From positions 352,001-416,000 of the forward strand of contig CAWAGQ010000011.1 of the NCBI GenBank assembly GCA_963781585.1: DNA of 64,000 bases, in the 5' to 3' direction. Source of the stretch: an uncultured Gemmatimonadaceae bacterium. GTDB lineage: Bacteria > Gemmatimonadota > Gemmatimonadetes > Gemmatimonadales > Gemmatimonadaceae. The notes under the pieces were generated by a model. It saw only the letters and a program-made list of their open reading frames with translations. It was not told the DNA's origin and ran no database searches. The position numbers and the translations under genes are program-made. How positions within the stretch are numbered: position 1 is the first letter of the stretch; each line of letters opens with the position of its first letter. This document shows positions 22,508 to 56,565 of the stretch, one piece after another.

Positions 22508-23461
22508 TCAGCGGTCAGTACTTTGGCCATTGGCCTTGGCCCTCTGGCCTTTCCATTCCCCATACCGATTCCACAGTAGAATCCCCAACGCCGGAAAGTA
22601 GATCGCGTACGCCCACGGCACCGCCAGTCGCACCTCGTAATCGCCGGGCACGAGCCCCTGACGCCAGCCGAAAAAGAGCACGAGGCTCGACAACGACAGC
22701 ACTGTCGCCTGGCGCAGTGTGCGCGGAATGAGCCAGAGGAGCAACTGATCGTAGAAGAAAAGCGCCTGCGGCACGACGCTCATCACCATCAGCAATCGAC
22801 CCTCGGGGCGTTTGATGGCGAGGAGTGAGAGCAGCAGCAGAAATCCACCGGGGCGCAGCAGCGGAATGAACTTCTCCTCACGCCCGCTGATGTTGGCGAG
22901 CCACTCGCCGGGCCAACCGGGCATGATGGCCACGCTGATCAGCACCAGCACCGCACCGAGGATCGCGGGAAGAAGCAGCGGACGCGCGACCCACACGCCG
23001 AGTCCGAGGTTTGGCTTCGCCGGCAGCACCAGGCCGACCGCAGGGATCAGGGCTGCGGCGATCATGAGCGGCGACCACTGCCCGAGCGACAGCGCGAGGA
23101 GAAAGGGGGCGCTGAGGAGGATGGGCAGCCGCACCGCGCCCGAGCGCGAGACTCCCCAGGCCAGGAGCCCGGCGGACACCGCCATGAAGATCGCGCCTGC
23201 AACGGGTAGTGGCAGCCACGCTACAGGAACGAGCAGCAGATACGCCGGCAGCGGATAGAGGGCGGGATCGTGCCCCGGGTTGAGCGGTCCCGAAGGAACG
23301 CTGAGATACGGGTCGCCGCCTGCGAGGAGTGTCCGCGCGGCGGACCAGAAGTGGAAGAAGTCAGGCGCGTACCCGGGGCGCGCCATGAGGGCCCACGCCG
23401 CGACGCCGCATGTTGCGGCCGCCGTGAACGCCACCAGCGTGGCGCGTCGGCGCCCGAGCAC
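22508..23461 (-). CDS. GT87/DUF2029-like membrane glycosyltransferase, paralogue 1
   Basis: DF..FWSAARTLLAGGDPY, LYPLP, GQWSP, AKPNLG, PEGRLL, FYDQL; multi-TM. Confidence 0.7.
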   Translation of the reverse strand: MLGRRRATLVAFTAAATCGVAAWALMARPGYAPDFFHFWSAARTLLAGGDPYLSVPSGPLNPGHDPALYPLPAYLLLVPVAWLPLPVAGAIFMAVSAGLLAWGVSRSGAVRLPILLSAPFLLALSLGQWSPLMIAAALIPAVGLVLPAKPNLGLGVWVARPLLLPAILGAVLVLISVAIMPGWPGEWLANISGREEKFIPLLRPGGFLLLLSLLAIKRPEGRLLMVMSVVPQALFFYDQLLLWLIPRTLRQATVLSLSSLVLFFGWRQGLVPGDYEVRLAVPWAYAIYFPALGILLWNRYGEWKGQRAKANGQSTDR

Positions 23462-23929
23462 CTGCTGGAGCGACCAGTCGAGAGAGAGCGACGCGCGGAG
23501 CGATGAGATGTTCAGAAGTACTCCGGTTCCAGCTGGTGGAAGCGTGATGCGGAATTACGATTCCGAGCCGAGAAATGCGGCACGTAGTGGCCGGCGCGTC
23601 GAATCGCACTGCTCCGAACCAGGACGGGGCTTGGAGGCTACTCTGTTGAGCGCACGCGACACCGATTGTTTCCTCAGAGCATCACCTGTTCTGACTCGCC
23701 TTGCCGGCGACAAGAGTTGGCACGGGACTTCCATTCATGACGATGCCCGCGAGCAATGAGCTATCACCTGTGAGCTCAGGTCGACGCGGGCCGGAGTCTT
23801 CTCGCTGTCCAGAGGAAGGCCTGACAAGGAATCAGGCTGGACCGGACCTTGCGCGAATGATCGCAGCGTTGTTTGTTAGTGCTTCCTAATTTTCTCTTTG
23901 TTGGCGCGTGCTTTCGGCATCGGGTGACG

Positions 23930-23953
23930 TTCGCGGTGGTTTTCCACCGCGAA
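23930..23953 (+). promoter_or_regulatory. Perfect hairpin upstream of flp1
   Basis: TTCGCGGTGG-TTTT-CCACCGCGAA, about 40 nt before the start codon. Confidence 0.5.
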
Positions 23954-23991
23954 GACGCAGGATCCACATCTTCACAACGAGAGGTTTTGGT

Positions 23992-24159
23992 ATGAACCGC
24001 ATCCGCAGTTTCCTCAAGTCCGACGACGCCATCGCCGTGACCGAGTACGGTCTCCTGATCGCCCTCGTCGCCATCGCCCTGATCGCCGTCGTCACGATCT
24101 TCGGGCAGCAGATCAGCTCATGGTTCTCGCGCAAGACCGGCCAGATCACCACCGTCTGA
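23992..24159 (+). CDS. flp: Flp/Fap (type IVc) pilin 1
   Basis: DDA|IAVTEYGLLIALVAIALI Flp motif; GAGG RBS. Confidence 0.93.
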   Translation: MNRIRSFLKSDDAIAVTEYGLLIALVAIALIAVVTIFGQQISSWFSRKTGQITTV

Positions 24160-24272
24160 CCGAGCGCTGGCGAAAAACACAAACGCGGATGCGTCTGGTG
24201 GTGCGGCACGGAGCATCGTGCCCGCCGCCGGCGCTACGCGCCAATCGCTGCACCAAAACGAGAGGTACGGGC

Positions 24273-24461
24273 ATGGTGAGGGACTGGGGTCAGGTCAAGC
24301 GCAGGCTCCGTCGACTCGGGGCGGATGACGCAATCGCGGTTACCGAGTACGGTCTGCTGATCGCGCTGGTGGCACTCGCCCTCATCGCCGTGCTGACCAT
24401 ATTCGGTGGGTCGATCTCGAGCTGGTTTGCCCGGAAGACAGGACAAATCACGACGGTGTAG
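24273..24461 (+). CDS. flp: Flp/Fap pilin 2
   Basis: DDA|IAVTEYGLLIALVALALI; near-identical mature region; same AACGAGAGG RBS context. Confidence 0.92.
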   Translation: MVRDWGQVKRRLRRLGADDAIAVTEYGLLIALVALALIAVLTIFGGSISSWFARKTGQITTV

Positions 24462-24544
24462 CGTACGCGGCGTGGCTCCGGCGCACTTTCGGCGTCCGTC
24501 GCGACGCTGTGGCGAGGAACCACGCAACGGCGGACTGGAAGACA

Positions 24545-25087
24545 ATGCTTCTGCAATCGCCGCATGGCCCGGCCTGGGGGGCGCTGTTCACGGCGCTGCT
24601 TGTCGCAGGCTGCGTGGCAGACGTTAAGTGGCGGCGGATCCCGAATGGCCTGGTTCTGGCAATTGCCATCACCGGACTCTGCCATTCCATTACCACACGA
24701 CCGGTCTGGCAGGGTCTCGGTTCCAGTGTGGCCGGGCTTCTGTTAGGCTTTGTGATCTGGATCGTCTTTTACGTCGCGGGCGTTCTCGGCGCCGGCGACG
24801 TCAAGTTCTTTGCTGCGGCTGGCGCCTGGCTCGGCCCCGCGGCGACCTGGCGCGCAGCGCTGGTCGCCGGCGTGGCTGGTGGGGTGCTCGCCGTCTTATA
24901 TCTGGTTCGCGAACGACGGCTGGCCAGTACCGTCCGTCGCATGGCCCTTGCAACGTCGTCCCGTACGCCGGCGCTCTTCGGGGAGATGCCCGACGCCGCG
25001 GGTTCAACACGGCGACACCTTCCGTACGGGGTGGCTCTGGCACTGGGCGCGCTGACGGCGGCATGGGTGCCGCACCTTCTGGCGTAG
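24545..25087 (+). CDS. cpaA: Prepilin peptidase CpaA/TadV (A24)
   Basis: DVKWRRIPN, LGAGDVK, LPYGVAL. Confidence 0.92.
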   Translation: MLLQSPHGPAWGALFTALLVAGCVADVKWRRIPNGLVLAIAITGLCHSITTRPVWQGLGSSVAGLLLGFVIWIVFYVAGVLGAGDVKFFAAAGAWLGPAATWRAALVAGVAGGVLAVLYLVRERRLASTVRRMALATSSRTPALFGEMPDAAGSTRRHLPYGVALALGALTAAWVPHLLA

Positions 25088-25097
25088 GGGAGCCACG

Positions 25098-25523
25098 ATG
25101 AATCCGTTCTACAGACTGAAACGATTTGCCCGCGGCGACCGCGCGGCGGCGATCATTGAGTTCGCGCTGGTTGTTCCGATTCTCTTTCTCATGGTCTGGG
25201 GCATCATCAACTTCAGCAGGGCCTATCAGCGGCTGAACACGCTGAGTGCTTCGCTCCGAGAGGGAGTGCGGTACCGGAGCACTCTGGCCAACCCGGATAC
25301 CTCCTGGATGCGCGACTCGGTCTGCCTACGCGTTTACACCTTTTCGAGCGCGTTTGGTTTCCCCATCGACACCAGTCAGATCCAGGTGCCCGCGTCGAAC
25401 ACTCTTGATGTACGTGTACGCGTGACGAACTACCCGCTCTTTTCCGGACTGAACTTCCTCGGCAACACCCTGAGCTCCATCCGGGTGACCCGGGAAGCCA
25501 TCTTCAGGTGGGAGCGATCGTAG
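25098..25523 (+). CDS. tadE: TadE/TadG-family pseudopilin
   Basis: RA|AAIIEFALVVPILF..GIINF..REGVR. Confidence 0.88.
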   Translation: MNPFYRLKRFARGDRAAAIIEFALVVPILFLMVWGIINFSRAYQRLNTLSASLREGVRYRSTLANPDTSWMRDSVCLRVYTFSSAFGFPIDTSQIQVPASNTLDVRVRVTNYPLFSGLNFLGNTLSSIRVTREAIFRWERS

Positions 25524-25602
25524 CGGGGCTTCCTCGAAGTTGCCGGCCGGGCGGCGGGGCGGAACGTGTCGTTAGGCAGATCCCTCGAACCACGTGGTGC
25601 GT

Positions 25603-26550
25603 ATGGCTGCAAAACGTTACTCGCTGGTCTTCTACGGAGCCGTGATCGTGGCCGTCGTGGCCACCTACGGCGTCTGGCGCGTGATCGAATCCACCAAGGC
25701 CAGCAACCGGATCGTCACCGGCCCGGTGGTGGTGGCGACCCGGGACATTCCGGAAGCGCTCATCATTGACCGGCTGGCGCTGGCCGTTGCCCAGTGGCCG
25801 CTGACCACCATCCCTCCCGGCGCGTACACGCGCATCGATTCGGTGGTCGGTCGGGTGACCAAGGTCCCCATCTTCAACGGGGAACCCATGGTACCCGGGC
25901 GACTCGCGCCGCAGGGAACGTCGCCCGGACTCGAGACCAAGATCACGCCCGGCAAGCGCGCGATGTCGGTCCGCGTCAATGACGTCTCGGGCGTTGCGGG
26001 GATGATCCAGCCCAACAGCCGCGTGGACATCCTCTACACGGCCAATCCCGGGAGCGATGGTCAGGAGCGCAAGTCAAAGCTGTTCATGAACAACATGCGC
26101 ATCCTCGCGATGGGCCAGCAGACGCAGCGAGGCCAGGACGGTCGTCCGATTCAAACCTCGGTGGCGACCATCGAGGTGATGCCGGAGGAGGGTGAGTTGC
26201 TCGCTGCGGCCCTGGCGCAGGGTTCGTTCCAGCTGCTGCTTCGCGGGTACGGCGACCCGGACTCGGTTGAAACGAGGGGAGCTACTGGGAGAGACGTCGC
26301 CGCGAGCCTGCGAGATGTCCCAGTGCGCTCATCCCGCCCGGCGCCGCGAGTCGCCACGTCCCACGTGTCGCCCCAACCCCATCCGATCGAAGAGCCTCCA
26401 CCAGTCGCGCCGGCCCCACCGCCCGTCGTGCAGAAGGCTGCCCAGAAACCCGACTCGCTTGTCATCCAGATGTTCAAGGGGAGCAAGCGCACGGACATCA
26501 AGCTGGCGCGAGACTCGGTCAGGCCTGACACGGGATCCACCAGGCCATAG
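25603..26550 (+). CDS. cpaB: Flp pilus assembly protein CpaB/RcpC
   Basis: SAF domain VVVATRDIP, PGKRAMSVRV..VAGMIQPNSRVDIL. Confidence 0.93.
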   Translation: MAAKRYSLVFYGAVIVAVVATYGVWRVIESTKASNRIVTGPVVVATRDIPEALIIDRLALAVAQWPLTTIPPGAYTRIDSVVGRVTKVPIFNGEPMVPGRLAPQGTSPGLETKITPGKRAMSVRVNDVSGVAGMIQPNSRVDILYTANPGSDGQERKSKLFMNNMRILAMGQQTQRGQDGRPIQTSVATIEVMPEEGELLAAALAQGSFQLLLRGYGDPDSVETRGATGRDVAASLRDVPVRSSRPAPRVATSHVSPQPHPIEEPPPVAPAPPPVVQKAAQKPDSLVIQMFKGSKRTDIKLARDSVRPDTGSTRP

Positions 26551-26597
26551 CGGCGGTGCTACGTGAATTCGCCAGGTACCAATACCGGAGGTATCGC

Positions 26598-27758
26598 TTG
26601 AACGGAACAGTCCATCGGGGCCCGCGCGCCCTCGGCGCCTTTAGTCTGGTGCTTGCCACGCTCCTGGCCGCACCGGCGAGGGCGCAGCAGCCGCAGACGC
26701 CGGTCACCCCCCTCGACCTTCCCGTCGGGCGGTCCTATCCCATCCGTACCGACGCCAACGTCACCCGCATCTCGATCGCCGATCCCGAGGTCGCCGATGT
26801 CCTGGCCGTCTCGGAGAACGAGGTCGTTATCAACTCGATGAAGCCTGGGGAGACCGACGCCATCATCTGGCTCGCTGACGGAACGCGCACCCACTATCGC
26901 ATCCAGGTGCACTCGCCGTCCGACCGGAAGCAGATCGCGATCGGGGTGAAGTTCGCCGAGGTCCGGCGCGACGCGCTCCGCAACATTGGATTCTCGGGAC
27001 TCTGGCGTGATCAACGTACTCGGGTAGGAACCGGCATCTTCAACTCCGACGCCGGAATCGACCCGACAACTGGCGAGGTCACCATCCCGACCTCGTCCAG
27101 ATTCCTGACTGTTCTCAGCGATCTTGGCACCAACGACATCCTCGCCTTTCTGAACGCCGAGGAGCAGACCGGGAAAGCCCGCATCCTGGCCGAGCCCAAC
27201 CTGCTTGCCGGGAACAAGGACACCGCGAGTTTTCTCGCCGGCGGCGAGCTGCCGATCCCCGTAGTGCAGTCTTCCCAGGGCCAGAACGGTGCGGTTTCGA
27301 TCCAGTTTCGCGAATTCGGGATCCGCCTGAGGTTCGTGGGCGAGATCATCAGCGACAGCCTCATCAAGCTCTCTGTAACACCGGAAGTCTCGAGTCTCGA
27401 CTTCACGAATGCCATCACGCTCCAGGGGTTCCGTATTCCAGCGCTCCGCACGCGGCGCGTGAGCAGCACGCTCGACGTCAAGCGCGATGAGAGCCTCATC
27501 ATCTCCGGGATGTTCGACACCGAGGACGAAAACGTCCGCACGGGGCTTCCGTTCCTGAAGGACATCCCCATTCTCGGACTCCTGTTCTCGGATACCCGCT
27601 GGCAGCGCAGCGAGACCGAGCTGCTGGTGGTCGTGACCCCCGTAATCGTTGATCCGATGAATCCACGCGCGCAGGACATATTGCGCATGCCGTCCGACAC
27701 GTCGCGTCCGGCGCTGGACGCACTCAAGAAGCGTCTTCCGCCGCCCAAGAAGCCCTGA
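26598..27758 (+). CDS. cpaC: Flp pilus secretin CpaC/RcpA
   Basis: TTG start after GGAGG; IADPEVADV, LAEPNL..ASFLAGGELPIP, FREFGIRL, PFLKDIPILGLLF, TELLVVVTP. Confidence 0.95.
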   Translation: MNGTVHRGPRALGAFSLVLATLLAAPARAQQPQTPVTPLDLPVGRSYPIRTDANVTRISIADPEVADVLAVSENEVVINSMKPGETDAIIWLADGTRTHYRIQVHSPSDRKQIAIGVKFAEVRRDALRNIGFSGLWRDQRTRVGTGIFNSDAGIDPTTGEVTIPTSSRFLTVLSDLGTNDILAFLNAEEQTGKARILAEPNLLAGNKDTASFLAGGELPIPVVQSSQGQNGAVSIQFREFGIRLRFVGEIISDSLIKLSVTPEVSSLDFTNAITLQGFRIPALRTRRVSSTLDVKRDESLIISGMFDTEDENVRTGLPFLKDIPILGLLFSDTRWQRSETELLVVVTPVIVDPMNPRAQDILRMPSDTSRPALDALKKRLPPPKKP

Positions 27759-27783
27759 TGGCGATGGAACTGACCGTGTCTGC

Positions 27784-28974
27784 ATGAACCGCCAGGCCCT
27801 GATCATTGGCGACGCGGTTGGCGCCGAGTCGGCGCTGGAGCAGACGCTCCAGCGCTACGGCTACACGACCATCCTCCACCGTCCCGGCGTGGCGGAAGGG
27901 CTGGAGTTCATAGGTCACGAGCACGTGGACCTGCTGTTCGTCCCCATCGACGCGGTGGATGAGCTCCAGCTCGCGGCGATCGACCGGGCGGGCCGACGCG
28001 AGCGGCACATGGGCGTCGTGGCCACCGGTCCGCGCACTGATCCGGAACTCATGCTCCGCGCAATGCGCGCGGGGATCCAGGAGTTCCTCGTCCGCCCCGT
28101 GGTGCTCGCCGACCTGGTCTCCGCAGTGGAGCGGCTGCATCGGCGAACAAACCTGGGAGTGACAAGTGGTCAGGTGTACGCCGTGTTCAGCTCCAAGGGA
28201 GGCGTGGGAACGAGCACGATCGCCCTCAACCTGGCGTACGCGCTGGCGTGCAATCACAAGGAAGCGCGAGTCGCGATTGCCGACCTGGCGATTCCCGGTG
28301 GCGACATCCGCGTCCTGCTCAACGTGCGGCCGTCGTACGACCTGGGCGACCTGGCTGCCAAGATCGACCGGGTGGATCGCGAGCTCCTCAACTCCGTACT
28401 CGTGCCGGCCACCGACGGCCTCTGGGTTCTGGCCGCACCCGAGCGGCCGGAAGCCGAGGAAATGATAGACGCCAACGTCGTATCGAGCGTGATCCAGCAG
28501 CTGCGCGGGGCCTTCAACTACAGCGTGGTCGATTGCGAGACCCAGATGAGCGACCGCACGCTGGCGGCGCTCGACGCATCGGACCGGATCATCCTCATCA
28601 CCGAGCTGAAGGTCCCGGCCATGCGCGCGGCGCAGCGGACGCTGGGGCTCTTCCGGCGGCTCGGCTACCCCAACGAGAAGCTGTGCGTGGTGGTGAACCG
28701 GTATCAGTCGGGCGATGTGGTCTCGGCGGCGGAAGCCGCCGACGTCCTCAAGACCGACCTGTTCTTCAAGCTGCCTAACGACTACCGGACGGCCTCGGAG
28801 TCGGCCACCGCCGGCGTCCCGATCGCCAAGAGCCACCCCGAGTCGAAGCTCGCCTGGGGATTCCTGCAACTGGCCCAGAAGCTGGGTGGCGGAGCGCTCG
28901 CCAGCGCCGACCGCGCCGGGACCAACGGGTCGCGCAAGGCCATTCGCAGTCTGTTCACGCGAAAGAGGAGTTGA
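27784..28974 (+). CDS. cpaE: CpaE/TadZ (receiver-like plus MinD-like ATPase)
   Basis: [10 protein letters not shown], deviant Walker [21 protein letters not shown]. Confidence 0.93.
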
Positions 28975-28976
28975 CG

Positions 28977-30389
28977 ATGTCGCTCGTGGATCGCCTGACC
29001 GGTCGAAGGACCCCTGCCGCGAACAAGGCGGTGGCCGACGTCATCGAGCCCGATGTCGCCGAAGCCGCAACCCCGCCCGCCGAGGGCGTTCGTGGCTCGA
29101 ACCTGTTCTCGCGAGCCATCGAACAGGACGTCCTGAGCCCGATCGACCAGCTCAAGGTGGACATACACCACCGCCTCATCACCCGTCTGGACCTGGAGGC
29201 GCTGGAGCAGATCAAGGACGAGGGCGAGATCACGGCGCAGATCCGGCTGGCGGTGAGCGAGTTCCTGCGCACGGAGTCAACTCCGCTGTCCCAGGCCGAG
29301 CGCGAGGAAATCGTCGAGCACATCGTCTGGGAGATCACCGGCCTCGGCCCCATCGAGCCGTTCTTCCGCGATCCCAGCATCACCGACATCCTGGTCAACA
29401 ACGCCCACAACATCTTCATCGAGCGCAAGGGAAAGCTGCGCCGCGTGCACGCGCAGTTCCGCAACGACGCCCACCTGATGGCGGTCATCGACCGCATCGT
29501 GAGCCGGGTGGGACGGCGCGTCGACGAGTCGTCACCGATGGTGGACGCGCGCCTCCCCGATGGCTCGCGCGTCAACGCCATCATCCCGCCGCTGGCCCTC
29601 GACGGTCCGGTCCTGTCGATCCGGCGATTCGGCGCCGACCTCTCGGTCCAGCAGCTCCTCGAAAACGGGAGCATGACGGCGGACATGTTCAAGGTGACGT
29701 CGGGGTGTGTGAAGGCGCGACTCAACGTCCTGATCTCGGGTGGAACGGGCTCGGGCAAGACCACCATGCTCAACGCCCTCAGCTCTTTCATTCCGTCAGA
29801 CGAACGCCTCATCACAATCGAGGACGCAGCGGAGCTCAAGATGCAGCAGGAGCACGTGGTGCGCCTGGAGACGAGGCCACCCAACTCGGAGGGACGGGGC
29901 GAGGTCATCGCCCGCGACCTGGTCAAGAACGCGTTGCGCATGCGTCCCGACCGGATCATCGTCGGAGAGGTTCGAGGCGCCGAAGCCCTCGACATGCTCC
30001 AGGCCATGAACACCGGCCACGAAGGGTCGTTGAGCACCATCCACGCCAACTCGCCTCGCGACGCGCTGTCGCGTCTGGAGACGATGATCCTGATGGCCGG
30101 CACGAACCTGCCCAACCGCGCCATGCGCGAGCAGATCGCCTCGGCGCTGGACGTGATCATCCAGGTGCAGCGTCTGGCCGACGGTACACGCCGCGTCGTC
30201 AGCATCACCGAGGTCACGGGCATGGAAGGCGAGATCGTGACCACCCAGGAGATCTTCCGGTTCCGCCGGAAAGGCGTGAATCCCGACGGCAGGATCGTGG
30301 GAGCGTTCGAGCCGAGCGGAATCCGTCCCCTCTTCACCGACAGGCTCCGGATCTCCGGCGTAGATCTGCCCACCGGTCTTTTCGACTAG
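28977..30389 (+). CDS. cpaF: Flp pilus assembly ATPase CpaF/TadA
   Basis: [52 protein letters not shown]. Confidence 0.97.
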
Positions 30390-30395
30390 CAGCGC

Positions 30396-31355
30396 ATGCA
30401 GCTTCTGATTCTCGCCCTCGTCTTCCTCGGCACCGTCGGCCTGCTGGTCGGCGGCTACGTGTTCGTCAACCGCAGATCTCTGGCGGCCAGCGAAGCGGCG
30501 CTGGAGCGCCTGCGCGATATCGAGCACGCGCCGCAGTCGGCGCGAAGCATCCTCCGCGACACGAGCGCCAGCAACGTTCCAATGCTCGATCGCCTGCTCG
30601 CGGGCCGCGGGATGACCGATGTCATGACGCGCCGATTGCTCCGCGCCGGACTCACCATGACCCCGGGGAGCTTCCTGCTGCGCGCGGCACTCAGTGTGGT
30701 TTCAGGGCTCCTGGTCGGACGGTACATCTCGTCGAGTACAGTGACGGTGCTCATGGGTGGGATCGTCGGTGCTGGGCTGCCCTTCGCCTGGTTACGAATG
30801 AAGCAAGGCAAACGCTTGCGGTCGTTCCAGGACCAGCTTCCCGATGCCATCGACATGATGGTGAGCGCCATGAAGTCGGGGTACTCGTTCCAGGCGGCGA
30901 TGAAGTTCATCGGCGAGGAAGTGCCGGACCCGCTCGGTCCCGAGTTTGCGCGCTTCTACGAAGAGCAGCGGTTGGGGATGGAAGTGCGCACGGCACTCCT
31001 GGAGCTCCAGGAACGCATCGACAGCCTCGACCTGCGAATGCTGGTCACCGCCATCCTCATCCAGCGCGAGACCGGCGGCAACCTGGGCGAAGTACTCGAG
31101 AAGATCAGCACCCTGATGCGGTCGCGGATGGCGCTCAAGGGTGAGATCCAGACACTGACCGCCGAATCGAAGCTCTCGGCCAGGATCCTGGGCGCGCTCC
31201 CGTTCATCGTTTTCGGTGCGGTCAGCATACTCAACCCCGGATTTCTGAAACCGCTGCTGCAGACGTCCTTCGGGCCGTGGCTGCTGCTCGGTGCCACCCT
31301 TTCGGTGGCGTTCGGTTACTGGGTCATGATGAAGATCGCCGACATCGATATCTAG
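30396..31355 (+). CDS. tadB: TadB inner-membrane platform protein
   Basis: FQDQLPDAID..KSG, IQRETGGNL, LTAESKLS. Confidence 0.93.
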   Translation: MQLLILALVFLGTVGLLVGGYVFVNRRSLAASEAALERLRDIEHAPQSARSILRDTSASNVPMLDRLLAGRGMTDVMTRRLLRAGLTMTPGSFLLRAALSVVSGLLVGRYISSSTVTVLMGGIVGAGLPFAWLRMKQGKRLRSFQDQLPDAIDMMVSAMKSGYSFQAAMKFIGEEVPDPLGPEFARFYEEQRLGMEVRTALLELQERIDSLDLRMLVTAILIQRETGGNLGEVLEKISTLMRSRMALKGEIQTLTAESKLSARILGALPFIVFGAVSILNPGFLKPLLQTSFGPWLLLGATLSVAFGYWVMMKIADIDI

Positions 31356-31364
31356 GCAGATGGA

Positions 31365-32270: not shown

Positions 32271-32344
32271 CCGGCGGGCGACGACTGTGAAACGCCTTCT
32301 CGCGCGTTTCATTTTCCACCGAGCGAGAAGCGGGAGGAGGAGCA

Positions 32345-33563: not shown

Positions 33564-33590
33564 GGTCGCCCGGGAAGCGGGTTGGTCAGA

Positions 33591-33640
33591 GAGGCCGGTG
33601 AGGCTTGACGCTTCACCGGCCTCGGTCATTTTGTCCTTTC
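33591..33640 (+). terminator. Probable intrinsic terminator of the tad operon
   Basis: GAGGCCGGTGAGGC-ttgac-GCTTCACCGGCCTC 14-bp stem followed by an interrupted T-rich tract. Confidence 0.7.
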
Positions 33641-35317: not shown

Positions 35318-35360
35318 CCGGTCGCGGGCGACACGGAATCCGACGCGAAGCCTGAGACAA

Positions 35361-48113: not shown

Positions 48114-48432
48114 TTCAGGCCAATGTCAGCGCAACCTCCATGCCATCAAGCACTTCCGCCCTGCGCTCCGGGTGCAATGTTTGAGCAGGCACGAGTTTCG
48201 CACGCCATGGGCAGCTTCGACGGAAGGGGCTTTGGGATAGCCGATCACGTACACTCCGCTTCCACGTCCGCAGCAGTCGGTCCACCCACTTTCCGCCTCC
48301 GGGAGAAGCCTGTCGAGACAAGAGCCAAGAAGTCACCGCCCGCTTGATCCGGCGCAATCTCGCGCGACAGCCGAGGATGACGCAATTCACCGATCCCGTG
48401 CGCGCCCGACACGACGAAGTCGCCATGGTCGG

Positions 48433-49995
48433 GTGTTGCCGGTGACCACCGCTCACCCAACGTCGCAGGCGGTGCTCGCCGCAGGCGCACTCGCGGCGCC
48501 GCTGTGCCTGGCCGGCTTCGTCCTGCAGTCGGGCGCGCTGGCAGGGCGTCCGCTGTGGCTGGATGAACGGCTGACGCTACTCGTAGCAAGCCAGCCGTCG
48601 ATGCCCGCGGTGCTGGACGCACTGCGACAGGGCGCGGACACGAGCCCGCCGTTGCTCTTCGCCTGGCACTGGGCCATAGGACACCTGCTGGGCCAGGTGG
48701 CCCCATGGCAGCTCCGCACCACAGCGCTTCTCTCGATGTTTGGAGCCGTGCTTGGCCTGTTCATGTTGCTCCGGCGCGTCTACGGCACGCTCCCGGCGCT
48801 CGCAGGCGCCTTTGTCCTGGCCGCGAATGCACAGATCATCCGCTACGCCTTCGACGCCAGGTTCTACGGACCCTGGGTGCTGCTCACCGTGGTCTATCTC
48901 GCGCTACTGGCGCGTCTCGCTTCCAGACGCGGTGGTGTCGTGCAGTGGGTTGCGACCTGCCTGGCAGCCGCGGCGCTCTGCCTCATTCACTACTTCGGTG
49001 TCATCACGCTGGTACTCGTCAGCGGAGGGGTGCTGCTCGCCGGCTACCCGGATCGACGGCGAATGCGCGAGGTCTGGCCGGGCGTGGTGACTGGAGCTGT
49101 GACAGTCGCGGCCCTTCTCCCGATGGTGCGCGGACAGCGTGCCGCGCTCACCGTGTCCACGTGGGTTCCACCTGCGTCGATTCTGCTGGCAATCCAGTTT
49201 CTCGGACCCTACCTGCTCCTGTACGTGGCCGCGGCGGCAACGCGTCGCTCGCTACAGGAGGGGCTTCGCCGCAGCGAACAGGCGCATGAACGCCGGGCGA
49301 TCGTCGCCGGATTGCTCAGTCTCGGCCTGCTGCCTCTTGTTCTCACCGGGTTCTCGTTCGCTGTGCAGTCGGTGATGATCATTCGCTATGCCCTTCCGGC
49401 GTTTCTGGCGATGGGCCTGGTGGCGAGCGCGCTGTTCTCACTGCTCACCCCACGATTACGGATCGTCTTCGCCGCGGTCCTTGTGGTAGCGGGACTCTCC
49501 GCGGCCTTCGCACAGGCCAATGACGGGCGCGCGTTCGAAGAGCGTGTGCGGGCCGATTCCATCACCGTCGAGACGGCACTAGGGCAAGGGCGGATCATCG
49601 CCAGCCCGTCTCGTAAGGAGCTGTACCCGCTCTGGAGCGTCATGCGCGGCACGCCGGACGCCGTCGTGATGGCAACCGTTTCCCCTGGACGCATTCGTGA
49701 GCGCTTCCCATCTGCGTCGGACTCGGCCGGCTTCGGCAACTACATGCTCCTGGAACAGGACATCGGACGGGTGCACTCGCGGCTCTTCCAACTGCCGCAG
49801 CAGGTCTCGGCGGACAGCCTCGCACATCTGCAGTGTTTCGTGCTGGTGGAGGATCAGGACGCGCCGCTGTTCGTGCAACGCTGGATGCCCGGGGCGACGG
49901 CCACCCGCTTGCAGGATCACGTGTTCCTGGTGCATGGTCCCCCGCGGCTCCCAACCGGAGACTCCGATCACGACTGCGCCGACGCCGCACGCTAG
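48433..49995 (+). CDS. GT39/ArnT-like (PMT_2) membrane glycosyltransferase
   Basis: LWLDE after first TM, SPPL, ARFY, HYFG, RY in late loop; about 12 TM. Confidence 0.75.
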   Translation: MLPVTTAHPTSQAVLAAGALAAPLCLAGFVLQSGALAGRPLWLDERLTLLVASQPSMPAVLDALRQGADTSPPLLFAWHWAIGHLLGQVAPWQLRTTALLSMFGAVLGLFMLLRRVYGTLPALAGAFVLAANAQIIRYAFDARFYGPWVLLTVVYLALLARLASRRGGVVQWVATCLAAAALCLIHYFGVITLVLVSGGVLLAGYPDRRRMREVWPGVVTGAVTVAALLPMVRGQRAALTVSTWVPPASILLAIQFLGPYLLLYVAAAATRRSLQEGLRRSEQAHERRAIVAGLLSLGLLPLVLTGFSFAVQSVMIIRYALPAFLAMGLVASALFSLLTPRLRIVFAAVLVVAGLSAAFAQANDGRAFEERVRADSITVETALGQGRIIASPSRKELYPLWSVMRGTPDAVVMATVSPGRIRERFPSASDSAGFGNYMLLEQDIGRVHSRLFQLPQQVSADSLAHLQCFVLVEDQDAPLFVQRWMPGATATRLQDHVFLVHGPPRLPTGDSDHDCADAAR

Positions 49996-50029
49996 CGCGT
50001 GGCCGCATGGCACCCCAGATGACACCTGG

Positions 50030-50965
50030 GTGCTCATCCCCATTTTCAACGACTGGCAGGCCCTCGGGGAATTGCTGCCCGCGCTCGAGCGCGAGCTGGC
50101 GACGAACGACCTCGCGGTGCGCGTCCTGGTGGTGGACGACGGCTCGTCGCAGCAAGGCACGTGCATGCGGCAGCCGGAATGGCGCGGCATCCGTTCCCTC
50201 GAGCTCCTTCGCCTGCGCCGGAACATGGGACACCAGCGCGCGATTGCGGTCGGGCTCTGTCACCTGGTGGACCATCATGCCGGGCGCGGATGCGTGGTCA
50301 TGGACGGGGACGGCCAGGACAAGCCCACCGACGTCCCGCGCCTAATGTCGGCCAGCGGAGCATCTCCTGACGGCCAGGCCGTATTCGGTTCCCGGTTGCG
50401 CCGGTCCGAAGGAATCACGTTTGCGTTCTTCTACCACCTGTATCGGCTCGTGCACTGGCTGCTCACCGGCGTACCGGTGCGGATCGGCAACTTCAGCTAC
50501 CTGCCGTGGCGCGACGCGAAGTGCCTGGCTGTTTGCTGGGAACTCTGGAATCACTACGCCGCGGCCGTGATCCATGCGCGCATTCCATTCCACACGGTGC
50601 CGTGCGCCCGGGGGGACCGCCTCACCGGACAGTCGAAGATGAATCCGGTGGCGCTGGTGGTTCACGGACTCAGCGCCATGGCCGTGTTTTCGGATCGGAT
50701 CGGTGTGCGGGTGCTTGCCCTCTCCGGCGCGCTCTCGGCCCTCGCCGTGCTCGGCATCGGCGCCGTGCTGGCCGTCAAGTGGGGAACTTCTCTCGCCGTG
50801 CCCGGCTGGCCGACGTCGGCCATGGGACTCCTGCTGGTCGTGGTGGGTGAGCTAGTGCTGTTGAGCACCCTCTTCACGTTCATCATCCTGTCGGGGCGGA
50901 GCACGAGCGCGGTGATACCGTTGCGGGATTATGAGATCTTCGTGGAACCATCTCCGCACCAGTGA
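50030..50965 (+). CDS. GT2 GtrB/ArnC-like polyprenyl-phosphate glycosyltransferase (start uncertain, possible 5' frameshift)
   Basis: VLIPIFND, VVDDGS, RNMGHQRAI, MDGDGQD, two C-terminal TM. Confidence 0.87.
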   Translation: MLIPIFNDWQALGELLPALERELATNDLAVRVLVVDDGSSQQGTCMRQPEWRGIRSLELLRLRRNMGHQRAIAVGLCHLVDHHAGRGCVVMDGDGQDKPTDVPRLMSASGASPDGQAVFGSRLRRSEGITFAFFYHLYRLVHWLLTGVPVRIGNFSYLPWRDAKCLAVCWELWNHYAAAVIHARIPFHTVPCARGDRLTGQSKMNPVALVVHGLSAMAVFSDRIGVRVLALSGALSALAVLGIGAVLAVKWGTSLAVPGWPTSAMGLLLVVVGELVLLSTLFTFIILSGRSTSAVIPLRDYEIFVEPSPHQ

Positions 50966-52041
50966 GTGACGCCGCCATGACCGCGTCGGTCGAGCCCGAG
51001 GACCCTCACAGGCCCCTCGCCATTTCCCTGCGCCTGCGTGTCGCGCTGGGCGTGGCCGGAGTGGCGGCCATTCTGGTCGTCTTCGGCGCGCTCCATTTCC
51101 CGGACTTCATCAGCGACTTCGACCAGATCTGGTTTGCGGCGCGCGCTGTCCTGCACGGACGCGACCCTTATCAGCTGATCGGACCGGGGAAGGAGTTCAA
51201 CGTCGGATTTCCGCTGTACTATCCGCTGATGGCCCCGATCGTCGCGCTGCCGTTCGGCATGCTGCCGCTCATCGCGGCGCGCGCCGCGTGGGTCTTCACC
51301 ACTTGCGGGTTGCTTGCCTTCCTGCTCACGCGCGACGGATACCGGCGCCTCCCGATTGTCATCTCGGGTGCATTCGTCTCGTGCATTCAGCTCGTGCAGT
51401 GGTCGCCGATCATGACCTGCGCGGTCCTGGTCCCGGCGCTGGGTTTCTTCGCGGCCGCCAAACCAAACATCGGTGCGGCCGCTGTGGCCGGCGTAAGGAC
51501 CCGGCGCGAGTTCGTCCTCTCCGCCGGCGGCGTGATGCTCCTGACGCTGATCGCGTTCCTGGTGCAGCCGTCATGGTTCAGCGAATGGCGCGCCGCGGTG
51601 GCCTCGGCGACGCACTTTCGATCGTTCATGATGCTCCCCGGAGGGCAGCTGCTGGCGCTCTGCGCCCTCCGCTGGCGGCGCTGGGATGCCCGGCTGCTGG
51701 CGGTGTTGGCCCTGTTCCCACAGACACCGGGCGCGAATTCGGCTTTGCTCCTCCTGCTGATCCCCCAGCGCCGGTTCGACATTCTGGTGTTCAGCCTGTT
51801 GACCTACATCCCCGTCTATGTGGGATTCTGGGCCGCCTACCGGCCGACAGTGGAGGAATACTCGCGAGTCATGGGCTGGGTGACGCTCGTCTCCGTCTAT
51901 TTCCCGATGTTGTGGTTCGTCCTGCGCCAGCCTAACGTGGGCCGCATGCCCGGCGTCGTCGAACGCGCGGTCGCCCGGTTCCCGGAGTGGATCCGTGGAT
52001 CCGCACCCGGTGGGGGAGCCGTGGCCGGAACCAGCGCCTGA
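50962..52041 (+). CDS. GT87/DUF2029-like membrane glycosyltransferase, paralogue 6
   Basis: SDFDQIWFAARAVLHGRDPY, YYPL, VQWSP, AKPNIG, PQTP. Confidence 0.72.
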   Translation: MSDAAMTASVEPEDPHRPLAISLRLRVALGVAGVAAILVVFGALHFPDFISDFDQIWFAARAVLHGRDPYQLIGPGKEFNVGFPLYYPLMAPIVALPFGMLPLIAARAAWVFTTCGLLAFLLTRDGYRRLPIVISGAFVSCIQLVQWSPIMTCAVLVPALGFFAAAKPNIGAAAVAGVRTRREFVLSAGGVMLLTLIAFLVQPSWFSEWRAAVASATHFRSFMMLPGGQLLALCALRWRRWDARLLAVLALFPQTPGANSALLLLLIPQRRFDILVFSLLTYIPVYVGFWAAYRPTVEEYSRVMGWVTLVSVYFPMLWFVLRQPNVGRMPGVVERAVARFPEWIRGSAPGGGAVAGTSA

Positions 52042-52047
52042 GGAGAC

Positions 52048-52866
52048 ATGCCGACTCCCGTCGATGTGTCCGTGGTGCTCCCCTGCTTCCGCGACGCCGC
52101 GCTCGCGCGGCGGTCGGTCGGGGCGCTCCGCTTCGCGCTCGAGCGCACCGGATTCTCGTGGGAGATCGTCGTGGTCGATGATGGAGGAGGAGATTTCCTG
52201 CACGGGGAATGGGACGACGACGAGGACATTTCGCTCCTCCGCTTTCCGGAGAACCGCGGCAAGGGTGCGGCCGTGCGGGCCGGGCTGCGGGCCGCGCGCG
52301 GCCGGGCGCGAATCTTCACCGACGTCGACCTTCCGTTCGGCACGGATCTGATTCCGGTGATCGCGGACTACCTGCTCGACCGCGACTTTCACGTAGTGAT
52401 GGGGGACCGGACGCTGCCGGATTCGGCGTACTATCTGCGCACGCCGTGGCCGCGCCGGCTGGCGTCGGCACTCTTCACCGCCTTCGTGGGCACCCTGGTG
52501 ACCGGGGGGTTCTTCGATACGCAGTGCGGTCTCAAGGGCCTGCGTGGCGATGTGGCCGAGGCCATGCTCCCATTGTTGCGGCTCGACCGGTTCGCCTTTG
52601 ATGTGGAACTGGTCTACGTATCGCTGAAGCACCGTCTCGACATCAAGCGGATTCCCGTCCGGTTGCTGCATAACGAGACGTCGTCGGTTCGTCTGGCCCG
52701 GGATTCGGCGCGCGGCTTCATCGACGTATTCCGGATAAAGTACCATCAGCTCCGCGGATGGTACGCGAGTCTTCCGCTCGATGCGATCGTGCGCCGCGAT
52801 TTCGCCGGGCAATACGCCCGTTCCACACAGCCGGCAGAGCCGTTTCGACAGCAAGGGCCCCGGTGA
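52048..52866 (+). CDS. GT2 dolichyl/polyprenyl-phosphate glycosyltransferase (ALG5-like)
   Basis: VVDDG, NRGKGAAVRAG, FTDVDL, DTQCGLK, FAFDVEL. Confidence 0.88.
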   Translation: MPTPVDVSVVLPCFRDAALARRSVGALRFALERTGFSWEIVVVDDGGGDFLHGEWDDDEDISLLRFPENRGKGAAVRAGLRAARGRARIFTDVDLPFGTDLIPVIADYLLDRDFHVVMGDRTLPDSAYYLRTPWPRRLASALFTAFVGTLVTGGFFDTQCGLKGLRGDVAEAMLPLLRLDRFAFDVELVYVSLKHRLDIKRIPVRLLHNETSSVRLARDSARGFIDVFRIKYHQLRGWYASLPLDAIVRRDFAGQYARSTQPAEPFRQQGPR

Positions 52867-53900
52867 CCGGCGCACACCTGGAATCGCAGCCGGGCCCCGC
52901 CACGCCGGAAGAGGAGAAGCGGCCCCGTCGCTTCGACTGGCGTGCGCATGTCGAGGTCGCGCGGCCGGACTACTGGTTCAAGAACGTCTTCGTCCTGCCC
53001 GGGATCGTGATCGCGCTCGGCACCGTCAGTCAGGTGGATCCCGGGCAGGTCGCGCGGCGCGCCCTCATCGGACTGTTGTCGATCTGCCTGATCGCGTCGA
53101 GCAACTACACCCTCAACGAGATCCTCGACGCGGCCTCGGACCGCTTTCATCCGGTGAAGCATGCCCGGCCCATCCCGTCCGGACGGGTCCGCGTGGGGGC
53201 GGCGTACGCGCAGTGGGTGCTGCTGTTCGTGGCCGGCATGGCGCTGGGACGGATGGTGTCGACGCCGTTCTCCCTGTCGGTGCTGGCGCTGTGGATCATG
53301 GCGTGCGTCTACAACGTGCCGCCGGTGCGCGCCAAGGATCAGCCGTATGTCGACGTCCTGTCGGAATCGATCAACAATCCGCTGCGCCTGCTTGCCGGCT
53401 GGTTCATCGTCACCGATGTCACCATTGCGCCGGCGTCGCTGCTCCTCAGCTACTGGATGATCGGTTGCTACTTCATGGCGCTCAAGCGATACGCGGAACT
53501 GAATGGCATCGACGATCGCGACCGCGCCGCGGCCTATCGCCGGTCGTTCGCGTTCTACACTCCCGAGCGGCTCATCGTATCCATCATGTTCTACGCCGCG
53601 GCGTCGATGCTCTTCTTCGGCGCCTTCTGCATGCGGTACCGGATGGAGCTCATCCTCGCGTTCCCGCTGATCGCTCTGGTCATGGCCATCTATCTGCGGG
53701 TGGCGCTCAAGACGAACAGCGCCGCGCAACACCCCGAGCGGCTGTACCGGGAACCGGCGCTGATGGCCGCCGTGGTCGGGACAGCGCTGGTGATGTTGGT
53801 CCTGCTGCGGCTGGATCTACCCGTGCTCTATGGTCTGTTCAGTCCGACCGCGCCGGTGCAGCAGCGAGGGAACGCCCTGGAACGGAGCAAACAACCGTGA
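52863..53900 (+). CDS. UbiA-family prenyltransferase, decaprenyl-phosphate phosphoribosyltransferase-like
   Basis: RP..WFKNVFV, NYTLNEILD..DRFHPVK..RPIPSG, KRYAEL match the DPPR-synthase subfamily rather than quinone UbiA. Confidence 0.8.
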   Translation: MTGAHLESQPGPATPEEEKRPRRFDWRAHVEVARPDYWFKNVFVLPGIVIALGTVSQVDPGQVARRALIGLLSICLIASSNYTLNEILDAASDRFHPVKHARPIPSGRVRVGAAYAQWVLLFVAGMALGRMVSTPFSLSVLALWIMACVYNVPPVRAKDQPYVDVLSESINNPLRLLAGWFIVTDVTIAPASLLLSYWMIGCYFMALKRYAELNGIDDRDRAAAYRRSFAFYTPERLIVSIMFYAAASMLFFGAFCMRYRMELILAFPLIALVMAIYLRVALKTNSAAQHPERLYREPALMAAVVGTALVMLVLLRLDLPVLYGLFSPTAPVQQRGNALERSKQP

Positions 53901-53934
53901 CCATTTCGCGATCGGCGAGGACGTTCGACTGACC

Positions 53935-55605
53935 ATGCAGGCGGCGCTCACCGCGGGCCGCCACCGGGGCGGTGTCATGTCAATCGGCACGCGCTCCACG
54001 GTCTGGCTGTGCCTGCTTGCCTGGCTGATTCTGATGTTGTGCGTCCAGCGATTCTCGGAGGCCGACGTCTGGTATCACCTCCGGAACGCTCAGGACTTGC
54101 TTAGCGCGCGCGCGGTTCCGCGCTTCGATCACTACACCTTCACATCAGCCGGAGCGCCGCTCGTGGACTACGAATGGCTCTCCGAACTGCCGTACTATAG
54201 CGCGTTCCGTGCCTGGGGCATGCGGGGTCTCCTGGCCGTCTACGCGGCGGTGCTCCTCCTGGTATTTGCCGGCGTGTATCACCTGGCGCGGCGCCGCGGC
54301 GCGAATTATCGGCAGGCCGCGCTCGCCACTTTCGTGGGGGTGGCGCTGGGTTCCTATTCCTTTGGCCCTCGCATGATGCACTTCGGGTGGCTCTGCCTGG
54401 TCGGCCTGCTGTTGGTGCTCGATCGGTGTGAGGAGAATCCGAAGCTGCTGTGGCTCATGCCGCCGCTGTTCGCGGCTTGGATCAATCTTCACGGATCCTG
54501 GGTGCTGGGTTTCGTGGTCCTCGGCGCGGTGCTGCTCGATGGAAGCCTGCGCGGGACCTGGGGAGCGATTACCGCCGCCGAGAGCACCGGCGCCACGCGT
54601 CCGAAACCTGTGGCGGTGGCGGCGCTCGGATCCATCGCAGCGCTGTTCGTCAACCCATACGGCGTTGGTCTCGTTCGGTATCCATTCGACCTGTTGTTCA
54701 GGCAGCAGTCCAATCTCAGCACGGTGATCGAGTGGCAGTCCGTGGACTTCCACTCCGGCTATGGCAAACTGGCTATGCTGATGATCCTGGGCGTGCTGGC
54801 GATCGTCTTGTTGCATCGCAAACCGTGGCGGCTGCGCGACGTGCTGCTTGTCGGATTCGCTCTCTGGGCCTCGCTGACGCACGCCCGTTTTCTGATCCTG
54901 GCCGGAATCCTGCTCCCGCCGATCCTCGCGTGCCGTGTGACGCTGTTGTCCGACGCCGATCGGACCCAGGAGACACCTGCGCTCAATCTCCTACTTCTCC
55001 TGGTGATGATCGTCGCGTTGATCAGGACGGTGCCATCGGAGAAGCGACTGCAGGCAACGATCGATCGCGATTTCCCACGAGCCGCCCTGGCCTTCTTGCA
55101 AGAACAGCGGCTCGAAGGGCGTTTGTTCAACGCGTACGACTTTGGCGGATTCGTCGAGTGGAACGCGCCATCGATCAGGACGTTCGCGGACGGGCGAACC
55201 GATATTTTTGTGTACAACGGTGTGCTCCACGACTACCTGAGAATCGTGCTGCTCAAGGGCTCGTTCGAAGTCCTGGATAAGTACGCAATACGGTACGTCC
55301 TTTACCCACCCGGACACCCACTCACCTATCTTCTCGATCGGAACAGGTCCTGGCATCAACTCTACGCTGACCAGACGGCGCGATTGTATGAACGCACCAT
55401 CGGTGCGCCTGCTACCAGGACCGAAGCCCCCAGCCGGGACGATCCGCGGACGGCCGCAACTTCAGGGATGGAACACGATCCAGAGCTGCAGACCCAATCC
55501 GAGCGCGGCCATTACGATGAGGATTCTGTTCAACCGGTTGCTGACAGAGTTCACTCCGCCCCGTTCGGCGCTCGCTCGTCCGATGGGTTCCGGAGGATGC
55601 CATAG
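53935..55605 (+). CDS. GT-C-like multi-TM membrane protein (D-x-W-x-HL family)
   Basis: DVWYHLR, YEWLSE, WINLHG, NPYG, IEWQS, C-terminal FNAYDFGGF..FADGR domain. Confidence 0.65.
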   Translation: MQAALTAGRHRGGVMSIGTRSTVWLCLLAWLILMLCVQRFSEADVWYHLRNAQDLLSARAVPRFDHYTFTSAGAPLVDYEWLSELPYYSAFRAWGMRGLLAVYAAVLLLVFAGVYHLARRRGANYRQAALATFVGVALGSYSFGPRMMHFGWLCLVGLLLVLDRCEENPKLLWLMPPLFAAWINLHGSWVLGFVVLGAVLLDGSLRGTWGAITAAESTGATRPKPVAVAALGSIAALFVNPYGVGLVRYPFDLLFRQQSNLSTVIEWQSVDFHSGYGKLAMLMILGVLAIVLLHRKPWRLRDVLLVGFALWASLTHARFLILAGILLPPILACRVTLLSDADRTQETPALNLLLLLVMIVALIRTVPSEKRLQATIDRDFPRAALAFLQEQRLEGRLFNAYDFGGFVEWNAPSIRTFADGRTDIFVYNGVLHDYLRIVLLKGSFEVLDKYAIRYVLYPPGHPLTYLLDRNRSWHQLYADQTARLYERTIGAPATRTEAPSRDDPRTAATSGMEHDPELQTQSERGHYDEDSVQPVADRVHSAPFGARSSDGFRRMP

Positions 55606-56565
55606 GAAGTGATTACCGAGGGCCAGCAACAGGACCGGGAGCAGGACGAGGTACACTTGCAGTCGCGCCAGCATGGAATAGCCGGCATCGAAGCTCCCGT
55701 ACGGGCCTAACGCCAGCGCGACCAACTGCAGCAGGTGCGTCAGCGCGGCCAGAACGAGGGCCTGACGCAGCGTGCGGCACAGCGCGAACAACGGCAGCAC
55801 ATCGTACAGGCTGGGAGTCTGCGGAACGAGCGAAGCCACGAGTAGTACACGGCCGTCAGCAGTGCGCCAGAGAAGCAACGCGGCCAGGAGGAGAACCCCC
55901 CCCGGCTGCAGCAGCGCGATCTCTTTGTTCGGGGCCGAGCGCGCCAGCGCGAGCCACTCTCCGTACCATGAAGGCCGCAAGACCAACGACGCCAGCATGA
56001 ACGAGGCGGCCAAGCCGATCACCAGGATGGCCTTGCGTCGATCCTGTGCGACGACTGCCAACAGCCCGACATTCGGCTTGGCGGCTACCACGAACCCAAG
56101 CGCCGGAAGCCAGAATGTCGCCAGGATCAGCGGTGCCAGCTGATTTCGGGAGATCGCCAGGTAGTACGAGGTGCTGAGCAGCATCGGCCAAAGCACGCGC
56201 CAGCGTGGGCCCACGGCGAAACCCAGTATCCCGGCCGAGACGACGCTGAACGCAATACGCGCCGCAGCCAACGGGAGAAACGAGAACGGAACGATGAGAA
56301 TGACAGCCGTGGGTGGATAGAAGAGCGGCCACGCCCACGGGAACTGTCGCCCCGGTCCCACCGCGGTGTACGGATCGGCGCCGCGAACCAGCGCCCGCGC
56401 CGCGTACCACAACTGGTCCAGATCGCTGGACATTCCCGGACCACGGACGTGTCGCAGAAGCGAGAAGGCGAGGGTGACTCCGATGACGACGAGGGTCGCC
56501 CGCCATCTGCTTCGCGACGCTCCATCAGGCTCACCAGCCGCCTGGGCGCCGGTCACGGTCTGCAA
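55462..56565 (-). CDS. GT87/DUF2029-like membrane glycosyltransferase, paralogue 7
   Basis: SDLDQLWYAARALVRGADPY, FYPP, AKPNVG, PQTPSLYD; extra C-terminal TM as in paralogue 4. Confidence 0.72.
   Translation of the reverse strand: MQTVTGAQAAGEPDGASRSRWRATLVVIGVTLAFSLLRHVRGPGMSSDLDQLWYAARALVRGADPYTAVGPGRQFPWAWPLFYPPTAVILIVPFSFLPLAAARIAFSVVSAGILGFAVGPRWRVLWPMLLSTSYYLAISRNQLAPLILATFWLPALGFVVAAKPNVGLLAVVAQDRRKAILVIGLAASFMLASLVLRPSWYGEWLALARSAPNKEIALLQPGGVLLLAALLLWRTADGRVLLVASLVPQTPSLYDVLPLFALCRTLRQALVLAALTHLLQLVALALGPYGSFDAGYSMLARLQVYLVLLPVLLLALGNHFLWHPPEPIGRASAERGGVNSVSNRLNRILIVMAALGLGLQLWIVFHP

Follow-up and report, generated by a model that had tools for sequence, protein, structure and literature searches.

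A Tad/Flp (type IVc) pilus operon and a set of membrane glycosyltransferases of the C-fold type (GT-C) share one cluster in a 64,000-nucleotide stretch of an uncultured Gemmatimonadaceae genome (G000:C11:352001-416000, here called the window). This Tad-linked GT-C glycosylation locus is real and conserved: the linkage is kept in two phyla, so it is not unique to this contig. Its conserved core is a single family, termed D here, and the remainder of the cluster is variable, not a fixed 11-gene set. Eleven polytopic GT-C-type genes of four families (seven copies of A, two of B, one each of C and D) accompany an flp-flp-cpaA-tadE-cpaB-cpaC-cpaE-cpaF-tadB-tadC-tadG operon; both the eleven genes in four families and the operon, confirmed with Pfam and NCBIfam, had been recognized in a first-pass annotation of the same DNA. 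We lean towards a reading in which polyprenyl-phosphate-monosaccharide donors come from glycosyltransferases of family 2 (GT2s) and a UbiA-family protein, D would prime Ser/Thr residues of Flp, and A, B and C would extend the glycan outside the cytoplasm. More tentative is a stronger version, in which D is an uncatalogued and very large branch of the STT3/DPY19/Pmt fold in bacteria and starts Flp O-glycosylation, with up to eleven GT-Cs building a long, strain-variable glycan wholly extracytoplasmically.

The host genome (5.7 Mb in 17 contigs, 93.5% complete, 7.2% contaminated) keeps its sole tad set and all its copies of families A, B, C and D in this cluster, as counted by BLASTP and hidden Markov model searches. 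Because they co-locate in this way, the cluster is not a chance grouping. Six further PMT_2-type genes lie elsewhere in the genome, and the GC content is even (63-73%). A flanking CocE hydrolase has its best plasmid match in Gemmatirosa (62%), in agreement with placement in the Gemmatimonadota.

Linkage of family D to tad genes

Co-occurrence was counted in 200 other Gemmatimonadota genomes, mostly fragmented and including kin that are not independent, with a D profile seeded from 10 genomes chosen because D adjoined cpaB. We found cpaB in 39 genomes, D in 37, A in 21 and B in 8. D and cpaB occurred together in 31, D without cpaB in 6, cpaB without D in 8, and neither in 155. Within the 31, the two genes lay no more than 17 kb apart in 26 and on different contigs in 5, with no case in which they were far apart on one contig; when the 10 genomes that seeded the profile are set aside, linkage holds for 16 of 21. 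Family A follows a similar pattern, as 17 of the 21 A genomes also carry cpaB (the two share a contig and lie within 26 kb in 12, are on separate contigs in 4 and are unlinked in 1; 11/16 linked without G155, itself a cpaB genome lacking D). Family B does not track tad. The proposed linkage of GT-C genes to tad thus stands for D and does not extend to the whole 11-gene set.

Fourteen tad regions, fetched out of the 39 cpaB genomes, were compared gene by gene. D was present in 11 of them, D and A were both absent from G070 and G072, and PMT_2, GT2, PAP2_3, sulfatase-like, acyltransferase and methyltransferase genes were variable partners. In many relatives' loci D is the gene nearest flp, and in the loci of close relatives it often faces away from flp. 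Tad genes lay within 10 kb of close D relatives in 27 of 56 loci (22/36 for full-length proteins; 31/56 by a looser rule). A second sample of 120 Acidobacteriota genomes contained D-like genes in 44, cpaB in 18 and both in 10, nine of these within 18 kb. Several Acidobacteriota loci (L053, L059, L069, L072) hold arrays of D paralogs beside flp, as the window does with family A. In one relative (G123, L012:15366-17993), D shares its reading frame with a PAP2_3 domain, either a fusion or an assembly error; PAP2_3 recurs in these loci. Membrane proteins fused to spermidine-synthase-like domains likewise recur in GT-C clusters (L011, L020, L036, L124, L127).

This D-tad link, present in two phyla and without a same-contig exception among the 31 genomes, is difficult to reconcile with a tad flank that is merely an insertion hot spot for envelope genes, its association with them positional and partly decaying. 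Nor does such a hot spot readily explain that each of four A paralogs is matched by an ortholog of its own in a different genus, or that every A, B, C and D copy of the genome sits in this one cluster. We regard it as highly improbable, even though it would fit the wide differences in gene content between relatives, the IS5 copy and frame breaks described below, a D gene that looks acquired, and the failure of B to track tad.

Pilin genes also occur with D or A where the rest of the machinery is missing. In a genome in which no cpaB was found (G050), a lone A-flp pair lies between glmM- and glmS-type genes (L137:8480-9738). Among 72,556 plasmids, D was found on seven, and family A had no match. 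One of the seven, from Phyllobacterium zundukense (NZ_CP104971; L108:11864-16476), carries flp, flp, GT2, methyltransferase, GtrA and D genes, and the 30 kb fetched contain no further tad gene. Three other plasmids carry the same GT2/methyltransferase/GtrA/D cassette without flp, and on the last three D is by itself or accompanied by a GtrA-like gene; GtrA is annotated in four of the seven loci. The D cassettes of a Sulfuricystis plasmid (L111:4090-9428) and an Azospira plasmid (L109) are on mobilisable or conjugative plasmids, and the former adjoins traG/H/F.

Of the 40 genomes of both samples that contain D without cpaB, 20 loci were fetched. Twelve encoded TPR-extended proteins, mostly in unrelated settings, three lay near GFxxxE type IV pilin genes, and one stood beside cpaA at a contig end. 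D-like genes in GT-C clusters beside GFxxxE pilin genes (L127, L130, L131) are a possible type IVa counterpart. TPR-extended D-like genes (L120, L122, L123) share a conserved lexA/PrpD-like context without pilus genes. A metagenome scan with TadG returned seven distant loci, mostly short, one of which held a family A gene.

Folds of the transferases and the likely acceptor

Family D (53935..55605, plus strand) is an unnamed GT-C with an STT3/DPY19/Pmt-like fold and our candidate initiating protein glycosyltransferase. It matched no Pfam or NCBIfam model, PF02516 included, and its profile collects 27,594 clusters (50% identity level) with E values of 1e-10 or lower. Each of the six top matches of its model (predicted local distance difference test score, pLDDT, 93.6) is a GT-C with a protein acceptor: STT3B (Z 19.9, root-mean-square deviation (rmsd) 4.2, 429 aligned), then DPY19 (Z 17.2), Pmt4 (16.5), PglB (15.7), AglB (15.3) and Pmt1 (15.3). 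ALG12 (Z 14.3), ArnT (14.1) and AftD (12.6) rank lower. Foldseek agrees with this ranking, and the C-terminal domain of D matches the isolated globular domains of AglB and PglB (Z 8.8 and 7.2). With STT3/AglB/PglB, DPY19 and Pmt, D therefore shares the membrane fold, a C-terminal globular domain of oligosaccharyltransferase type and an acidic first loop, whose acidic residues are conserved in D. It differs in lacking PF02516 and WWD, in its size of about 500 residues, at 7-13% identity to these fold matches, and in accompanying window Flps that contain no Asn. WWD, the oligosaccharyltransferase motif, occurs in 2 of 270 D proteins, and [WF]GG[YF] is found in 206 instead.

Since the mature Flps of the window have no Asn and carry six Ser/Thr in the tail, any glycan on them would be O-linked. 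N-glycosylation of Flp at this locus was excluded by the absence of Asn; a sequon is present in 11 of 55 Flps overall. A predicted complex of D with Flp scored 0.22 against a mark of 0.32 and counts neither for nor against the pairing.

With STT3B as its single best fold match, D might instead glycosylate periplasmic proteins other than Flp, or a wide range of them (TadG, TadE, RcpC, the TPR protein), or transfer a glycan en bloc, like STT3, after A, B and C have acted on a lipid carrier. The four sequons in the C-terminal part of TadG and the TPR-extended D relatives in unrelated contexts, 3/20 beside GFxxxE type IV pilin genes, would be in keeping with such an activity. The TadG sequons of 15 relatives, however, are at chance level and show no preference for D-carrying loci, and the scarcity of WWD in D proteins points away from an STT3-like reaction. 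An interval without a cytoplasmic priming transferase, GT4 or Wzx gene, together with minimal cassettes whose one GT2 and GtrA suit a monosaccharide donor, further argues against transfer en bloc, and we consider this alternative quite unlikely.

Family A has a GT-C fold as well. The best fold match of its model (pLDDT 94.3, made from the fifth paralog) is PimE (Z 18.2, rmsd 4.8, 300 aligned), followed by ALG6, PIG-U, ALG3 and GPI mannosyltransferase I (Z 12.0-12.9). Foldseek also places PimE first, with an E value of only 0.009. Families A and D both combine the GT-C fold with an acidic residue in the first external loop, as seen in models and alignments, which bears out the first-pass expectation of a GT-C fold; in A this is a conserved Asp after helix 1. 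Window A copies do not reach the gathering score of PF09594 (GT87; best 16.9 vs 25 bits), and 17 of 142 family members have weak GT87 matches (E 0.01 or better). Family A thus folds like a GT-C of PimE/GT87 type, a type of glycan extender, with the conserved Asp in common; it differs from PimE in falling below the Pfam cut-off, in comprising seven old paralogs, and in being tied to tad and not to a mycobacterial wall. PimE presumably extends protein-linked mannose. The window A copies are 32-39% identical to one another, and in a tree of 43 A proteins four of them each have their own partner in G138, a genome of another genus, so they are old paralogs.

Family B is likely a GT-C, on weaker evidence than A and D. 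Its two copies are 50% identical, an invariant DE follows helix 1, and its language-model neighbours bear PMT_2 in 35-48% of their members, although none of the 90 B members does so itself. The A, B and D profiles found nothing meaningful among PDB sequences, and those of B and D did not align to each other.

Seven of the eleven enzymes resemble PimE, ALG6, ALG3 and GPI mannosyltransferase I, all of which elongate glycans carried on lipids, and the product might accordingly be a glycolipid or lipoglycan made by a logic like that of phosphatidylinositol mannosides or glycosylphosphatidylinositol. It would share regulation and inheritance with the pilus, serving surface attachment, and the pilin would not be the acceptor. 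Eleven enzymes seem a large number for a pilin of 42 residues; in relatives the set is enlarged by PAP2_3, Acyl_transf_3, sulfatase-like and methyltransferase-fusion genes, and D also matches AftD, ArnT and ALG12 (Z 12.6-14.3). For D, however, protein-acceptor enzymes rank first, and the placement of D or A beside flp without Tad machinery, with D nearest flp in many loci, favours the pilin. We judge a glycolipid product rather unlikely.

The operon, its flanking genes and putative promoters

The Tad/Flp (type IVc) core set is present: Flp with its EY motif, an A24 peptidase, CpaB, secretin, CpaE, CpaF, TadB, TadC and TadE. The two plus-strand pilin genes, flp1 (23992..24159) and flp2 (24273..24461), are about 80% identical, and both products score below the PF04964 cut-off (30.3 and 25.2 vs 32.2 bits) while retaining EY. 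Their leader (window 23992-24461) ends in Ala (DDA/IAVTEY) instead of the usual Gly, as it does in G138. From cpaA onward the genes are closely packed on the same strand: the cpaA/tadV prepilin peptidase (24545..25087, PF01478), the tadE minor pilin (25098..25523, PF07811), cpaB/rcpC (25594..26550, TIGR03177 at 186 vs a cut-off of 71), the cpaC/rcpA secretin (26556..27758, PF00263 and PF13629), cpaE/tadZ with receiver and ParA-like domains (27784..28974), the cpaF/tadA ATPase (28977..30389, PF00437), and tadB (30396..31355) and tadC (31365..32270), both PF00482. The last gene, tadG (32345..33563), is split between two frames by a break near 32475, which places PF13400 and PF09977 in separate open reading frames; this break is either an assembly error or real. 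A 14-pair hairpin 3' of tadG (33591..33623, plus strand) is the probable end of the tad transcript.

One GT-C gene lies upstream of flp and ten lie downstream of tadG, placing tad near one end of the cluster; the GT-Cs do flank the operon, as the first-pass annotation stated, if very unevenly. The upstream gene is the first A paralog (22508..23461, minus), which is GT87/PimE-like and divergent from flp. Downstream, a plus-strand gene for an exported protein with TolB_N-like and TPR domains (33725..35317), in the same position in 4 of 14 relatives, may have a TadD-like role. It precedes GT2a (35361..36614, plus), which has C-terminal membrane helices and is of the AglJ-like polyprenyl-phosphate-sugar synthase type, below cut-off, and a class I S-adenosylmethionine-dependent methyltransferase gene (36704..37309, minus, start uncertain). 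A membrane sulfatase/phosphotransferase-like gene (37602..40400, plus) is present, as had been noted, but broken: its frame changes near 38566, 38886 and 38960 (at least three places), and it contains an IS5-family copy (39174..40181, plus, NF033581; 99.9% identical to a copy on contig C7), after which its tail resumes. Seven more paralogs of this protein are encoded elsewhere in the genome (contigs C7, C11, C17). The first-pass annotation had overlooked the TolB_N-like/TPR gene, the IS5 copy and frame breaks of the sulfatase-like gene, the tadG frameshift and the shifts in the gene at 40470.

That gene, A paralog 2 (40470..41450), begins a minus-strand series; close to the end of the gene, roughly 35 residues are scrambled by two frame changes that compensate each other. 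It is followed by A paralogs 3 (41447..42460), 4 (42483..43604) and 5 (43601..44644), the last being the modelled copy, with PimE as best match and a weak GT87 match, and by B paralogs 1 (44632..46431), a probable GT-C with the invariant DE after the first helix, and 2 (46419..48113). A plus-strand series then comprises family C (48433..49995), a PMT_2/ArnT-like GT-C over the PF13231 cut-off (27.4 vs 26.1 bits); GT2b (50030..50965, start approximate), ArnC/PgfS-like with two membrane helices; A paralog 6 (50962..52041); the short GT2c (52048..52866), of the PpgS-like polyprenyl-phosphate-sugar synthase type, below cut-off; the UbiA-family gene (52863..53900); and D. A paralog 7 (55462..56565, minus) closes the cluster. 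The best scores of the three GT2s are all to polyprenyl-phosphate-sugar synthases (AglJ, PpgS, ArnC, PgfS) and all below cut-off. The UbiA protein is DPPR-synthase-like, with Rv3806c as its best PDB match (8j8j, E 2e-16) and 98.5 bits against an NCBIfam cut-off of 207. These assignments, and that of the methyltransferase, agree with the original ones, as does the lack of Wzx, Wzy, Wzz, GT4 and NDP-sugar families among the genes called in 22.5-56.6 kb. Upstream of the cluster (window 18082-21172), a PadR gene and a duplicated MacB/FtsX permease form an ordinary neighbourhood.

A putative sigma54-type -24/-12 site (23718..23733, plus) precedes flp1 with a score of 8/9, and back-to-back sites (48130..48202, score 7 each) face the two long GT-C units. 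Both are pattern matches, scored after the fact with a hand-made scheme built on the sigma54 consensus. The genome encodes rpoN and has 17 score-8 sites; in a background of 927 upstream regions, 1.5% score at least 7 and 9.6% at least 6. The leader of the TPR-GT2a unit scores 6, and those of the first A paralog, the methyltransferase, the sulfatase-like gene and A paralog 7 score 2-5. Scores of at least 6 were reached in relatives by 10/13 flp leaders, 4/9 D leaders, 7/26 A/GT2 leaders and 42/382 others. A plain sigma54 pattern count over the window was not above chance (48 vs 64), so the sites are notable only by position, and no sigma70-type promoter was found in 22-41 kb. This arrangement suggests that the pilin and two long GT-C units may be under shared sigma54 control.

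A proposed pathway and its relation to known systems

In the pathway that we favour, the three GT2s and UbiA would load single sugars, one of them possibly ribose, onto polyprenyl phosphate, and the loaded donors would be flipped across the membrane. D would then transfer the first sugar to Ser/Thr of Flp, and possibly to other Tad subunits, after which the PimE-like A paralogs, with B and C, would add single sugars stepwise, lengthening the glycan or giving it branches. Its decoration would fall to the methyltransferase and, in loci where it is intact, to the sulfatase-like enzyme. Several donor synthases feeding many periplasmic transferases, as first proposed, fits the gene anatomy. Single-sugar donors are favoured because the cassettes have one GT2 and GtrA and because cytoplasmic priming genes are absent. 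Acceptor, donors, order of action, linkage type, co-regulation and purpose, which may be phage masking or adhesion, are all inferred.

As described in passages of bioRxiv 10.1101/2020.04.19.049825, TfpW of P. aeruginosa group IV arabinosylates pilin and has YX6PFX7P and DDX motifs and a TPR domain. The present locus resembles that system in its GT-C linked to pilin genes, a presumed lipid-linked monosaccharide donor, a DPPR-synthase-like UbiA and an expected Ser/Thr acceptor. It differs in having type IVc Flp and not a type IVa pilin, and eleven GT-Cs and not one. Compared by motifs, D lacks YX6PFX7P (0/270 proteins) and DDX (DD within the first 90 residues in 16/270), and the TPR domain is absent from the window form and present in long D relatives. 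The tfpW gene stands beside its pilin gene, whereas D is 29 kb away in the window and adjacent in many relatives. The parallel is weakest for arabinose: neither a DprE1-type ALO domain (PF04030) nor GtrA (PF04138) was found in the 93.5% complete genome. Without a DprE1-type gene, UbiA would be expected to yield a ribose-linked product and not an arabinose one, and an arabinose donor is unsupported.

Three-component systems such as GtrAB-GtrV and ArnC-ArnT combine a GT2, GtrA and a GT-C. The window shares with them a polyprenyl-phosphate-sugar synthase and a GT-C, and the D cassettes on plasmids consist of exactly GT2, GtrA and GT-C; it differs in having three GT2s, UbiA, eleven GT-Cs, no GtrA found and a probable protein acceptor. 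The Tad/Flp loci of Aggregatibacter, Caulobacter and Pseudomonas have the same core gene set and order as the window. Flp1 of Aggregatibacter, cited in the first-pass annotation, is reportedly a glycoprotein. Print support for this is indirect: a passage of PMC12307814 implicates RcpC in Flp glycosylation and names no enzyme there, and passages of PMC7157720, PMC13721041 and PMC4471445 do not state it. According to bioRxiv 10.1101/150227, pilus glycans block pilus phages in Pseudomonas. We found no published description of this locus type in the literature searched, which left most subscription papers and supplements outside.

Several observations weigh against Flp as the acceptor. A passage on the tad pilus of C. 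crescentus reports no glycan and no added density (PMC10710030). Ser/Thr-rich tails are general, being found in all Flps examined. D and A also occur without pili: D-like genes are present without cpaB in 34/120 Acidobacteriota genomes, six A copies in 4 Gemmatimonadota genomes lie away from tad, and 6/7 plasmid D loci lack flp in the stretch fetched. Conversely, D is absent from 8 of the 39 cpaB genomes, and A and D are both absent from 6. In the window, 29 kb separate D from flp, and this D is 53-55% identical to Acidobacteriota proteins vs 19-28% to those of its own phylum. In this assembly neither tadG nor the sulfatase-like gene is intact, the genome lacks a detectable GtrA flippase, and the PimE likeness, together with PAP2-like, acyltransferase and sulfatase-like neighbours, also fits a glycolipid.

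Together, these findings single out family D as a candidate for glycosylating the Flp pilin, and the question of the acceptor becomes testable with a four-gene cassette that, in a cultured and named bacterium, is accompanied by flp genes of its own. If the proposed pathway is correct, it would explain what a very large GT-C family without a name does and provide a compact bacterial relative of STT3, DPY19 and Pmt, useful for studies of GT-C evolution and for glycoengineering. It would also extend pilus glycans to the type IVc pili of uncultured phyla and, in its stronger version, describe a protein-glycosylation pathway without a cytoplasmic oligosaccharide stage.

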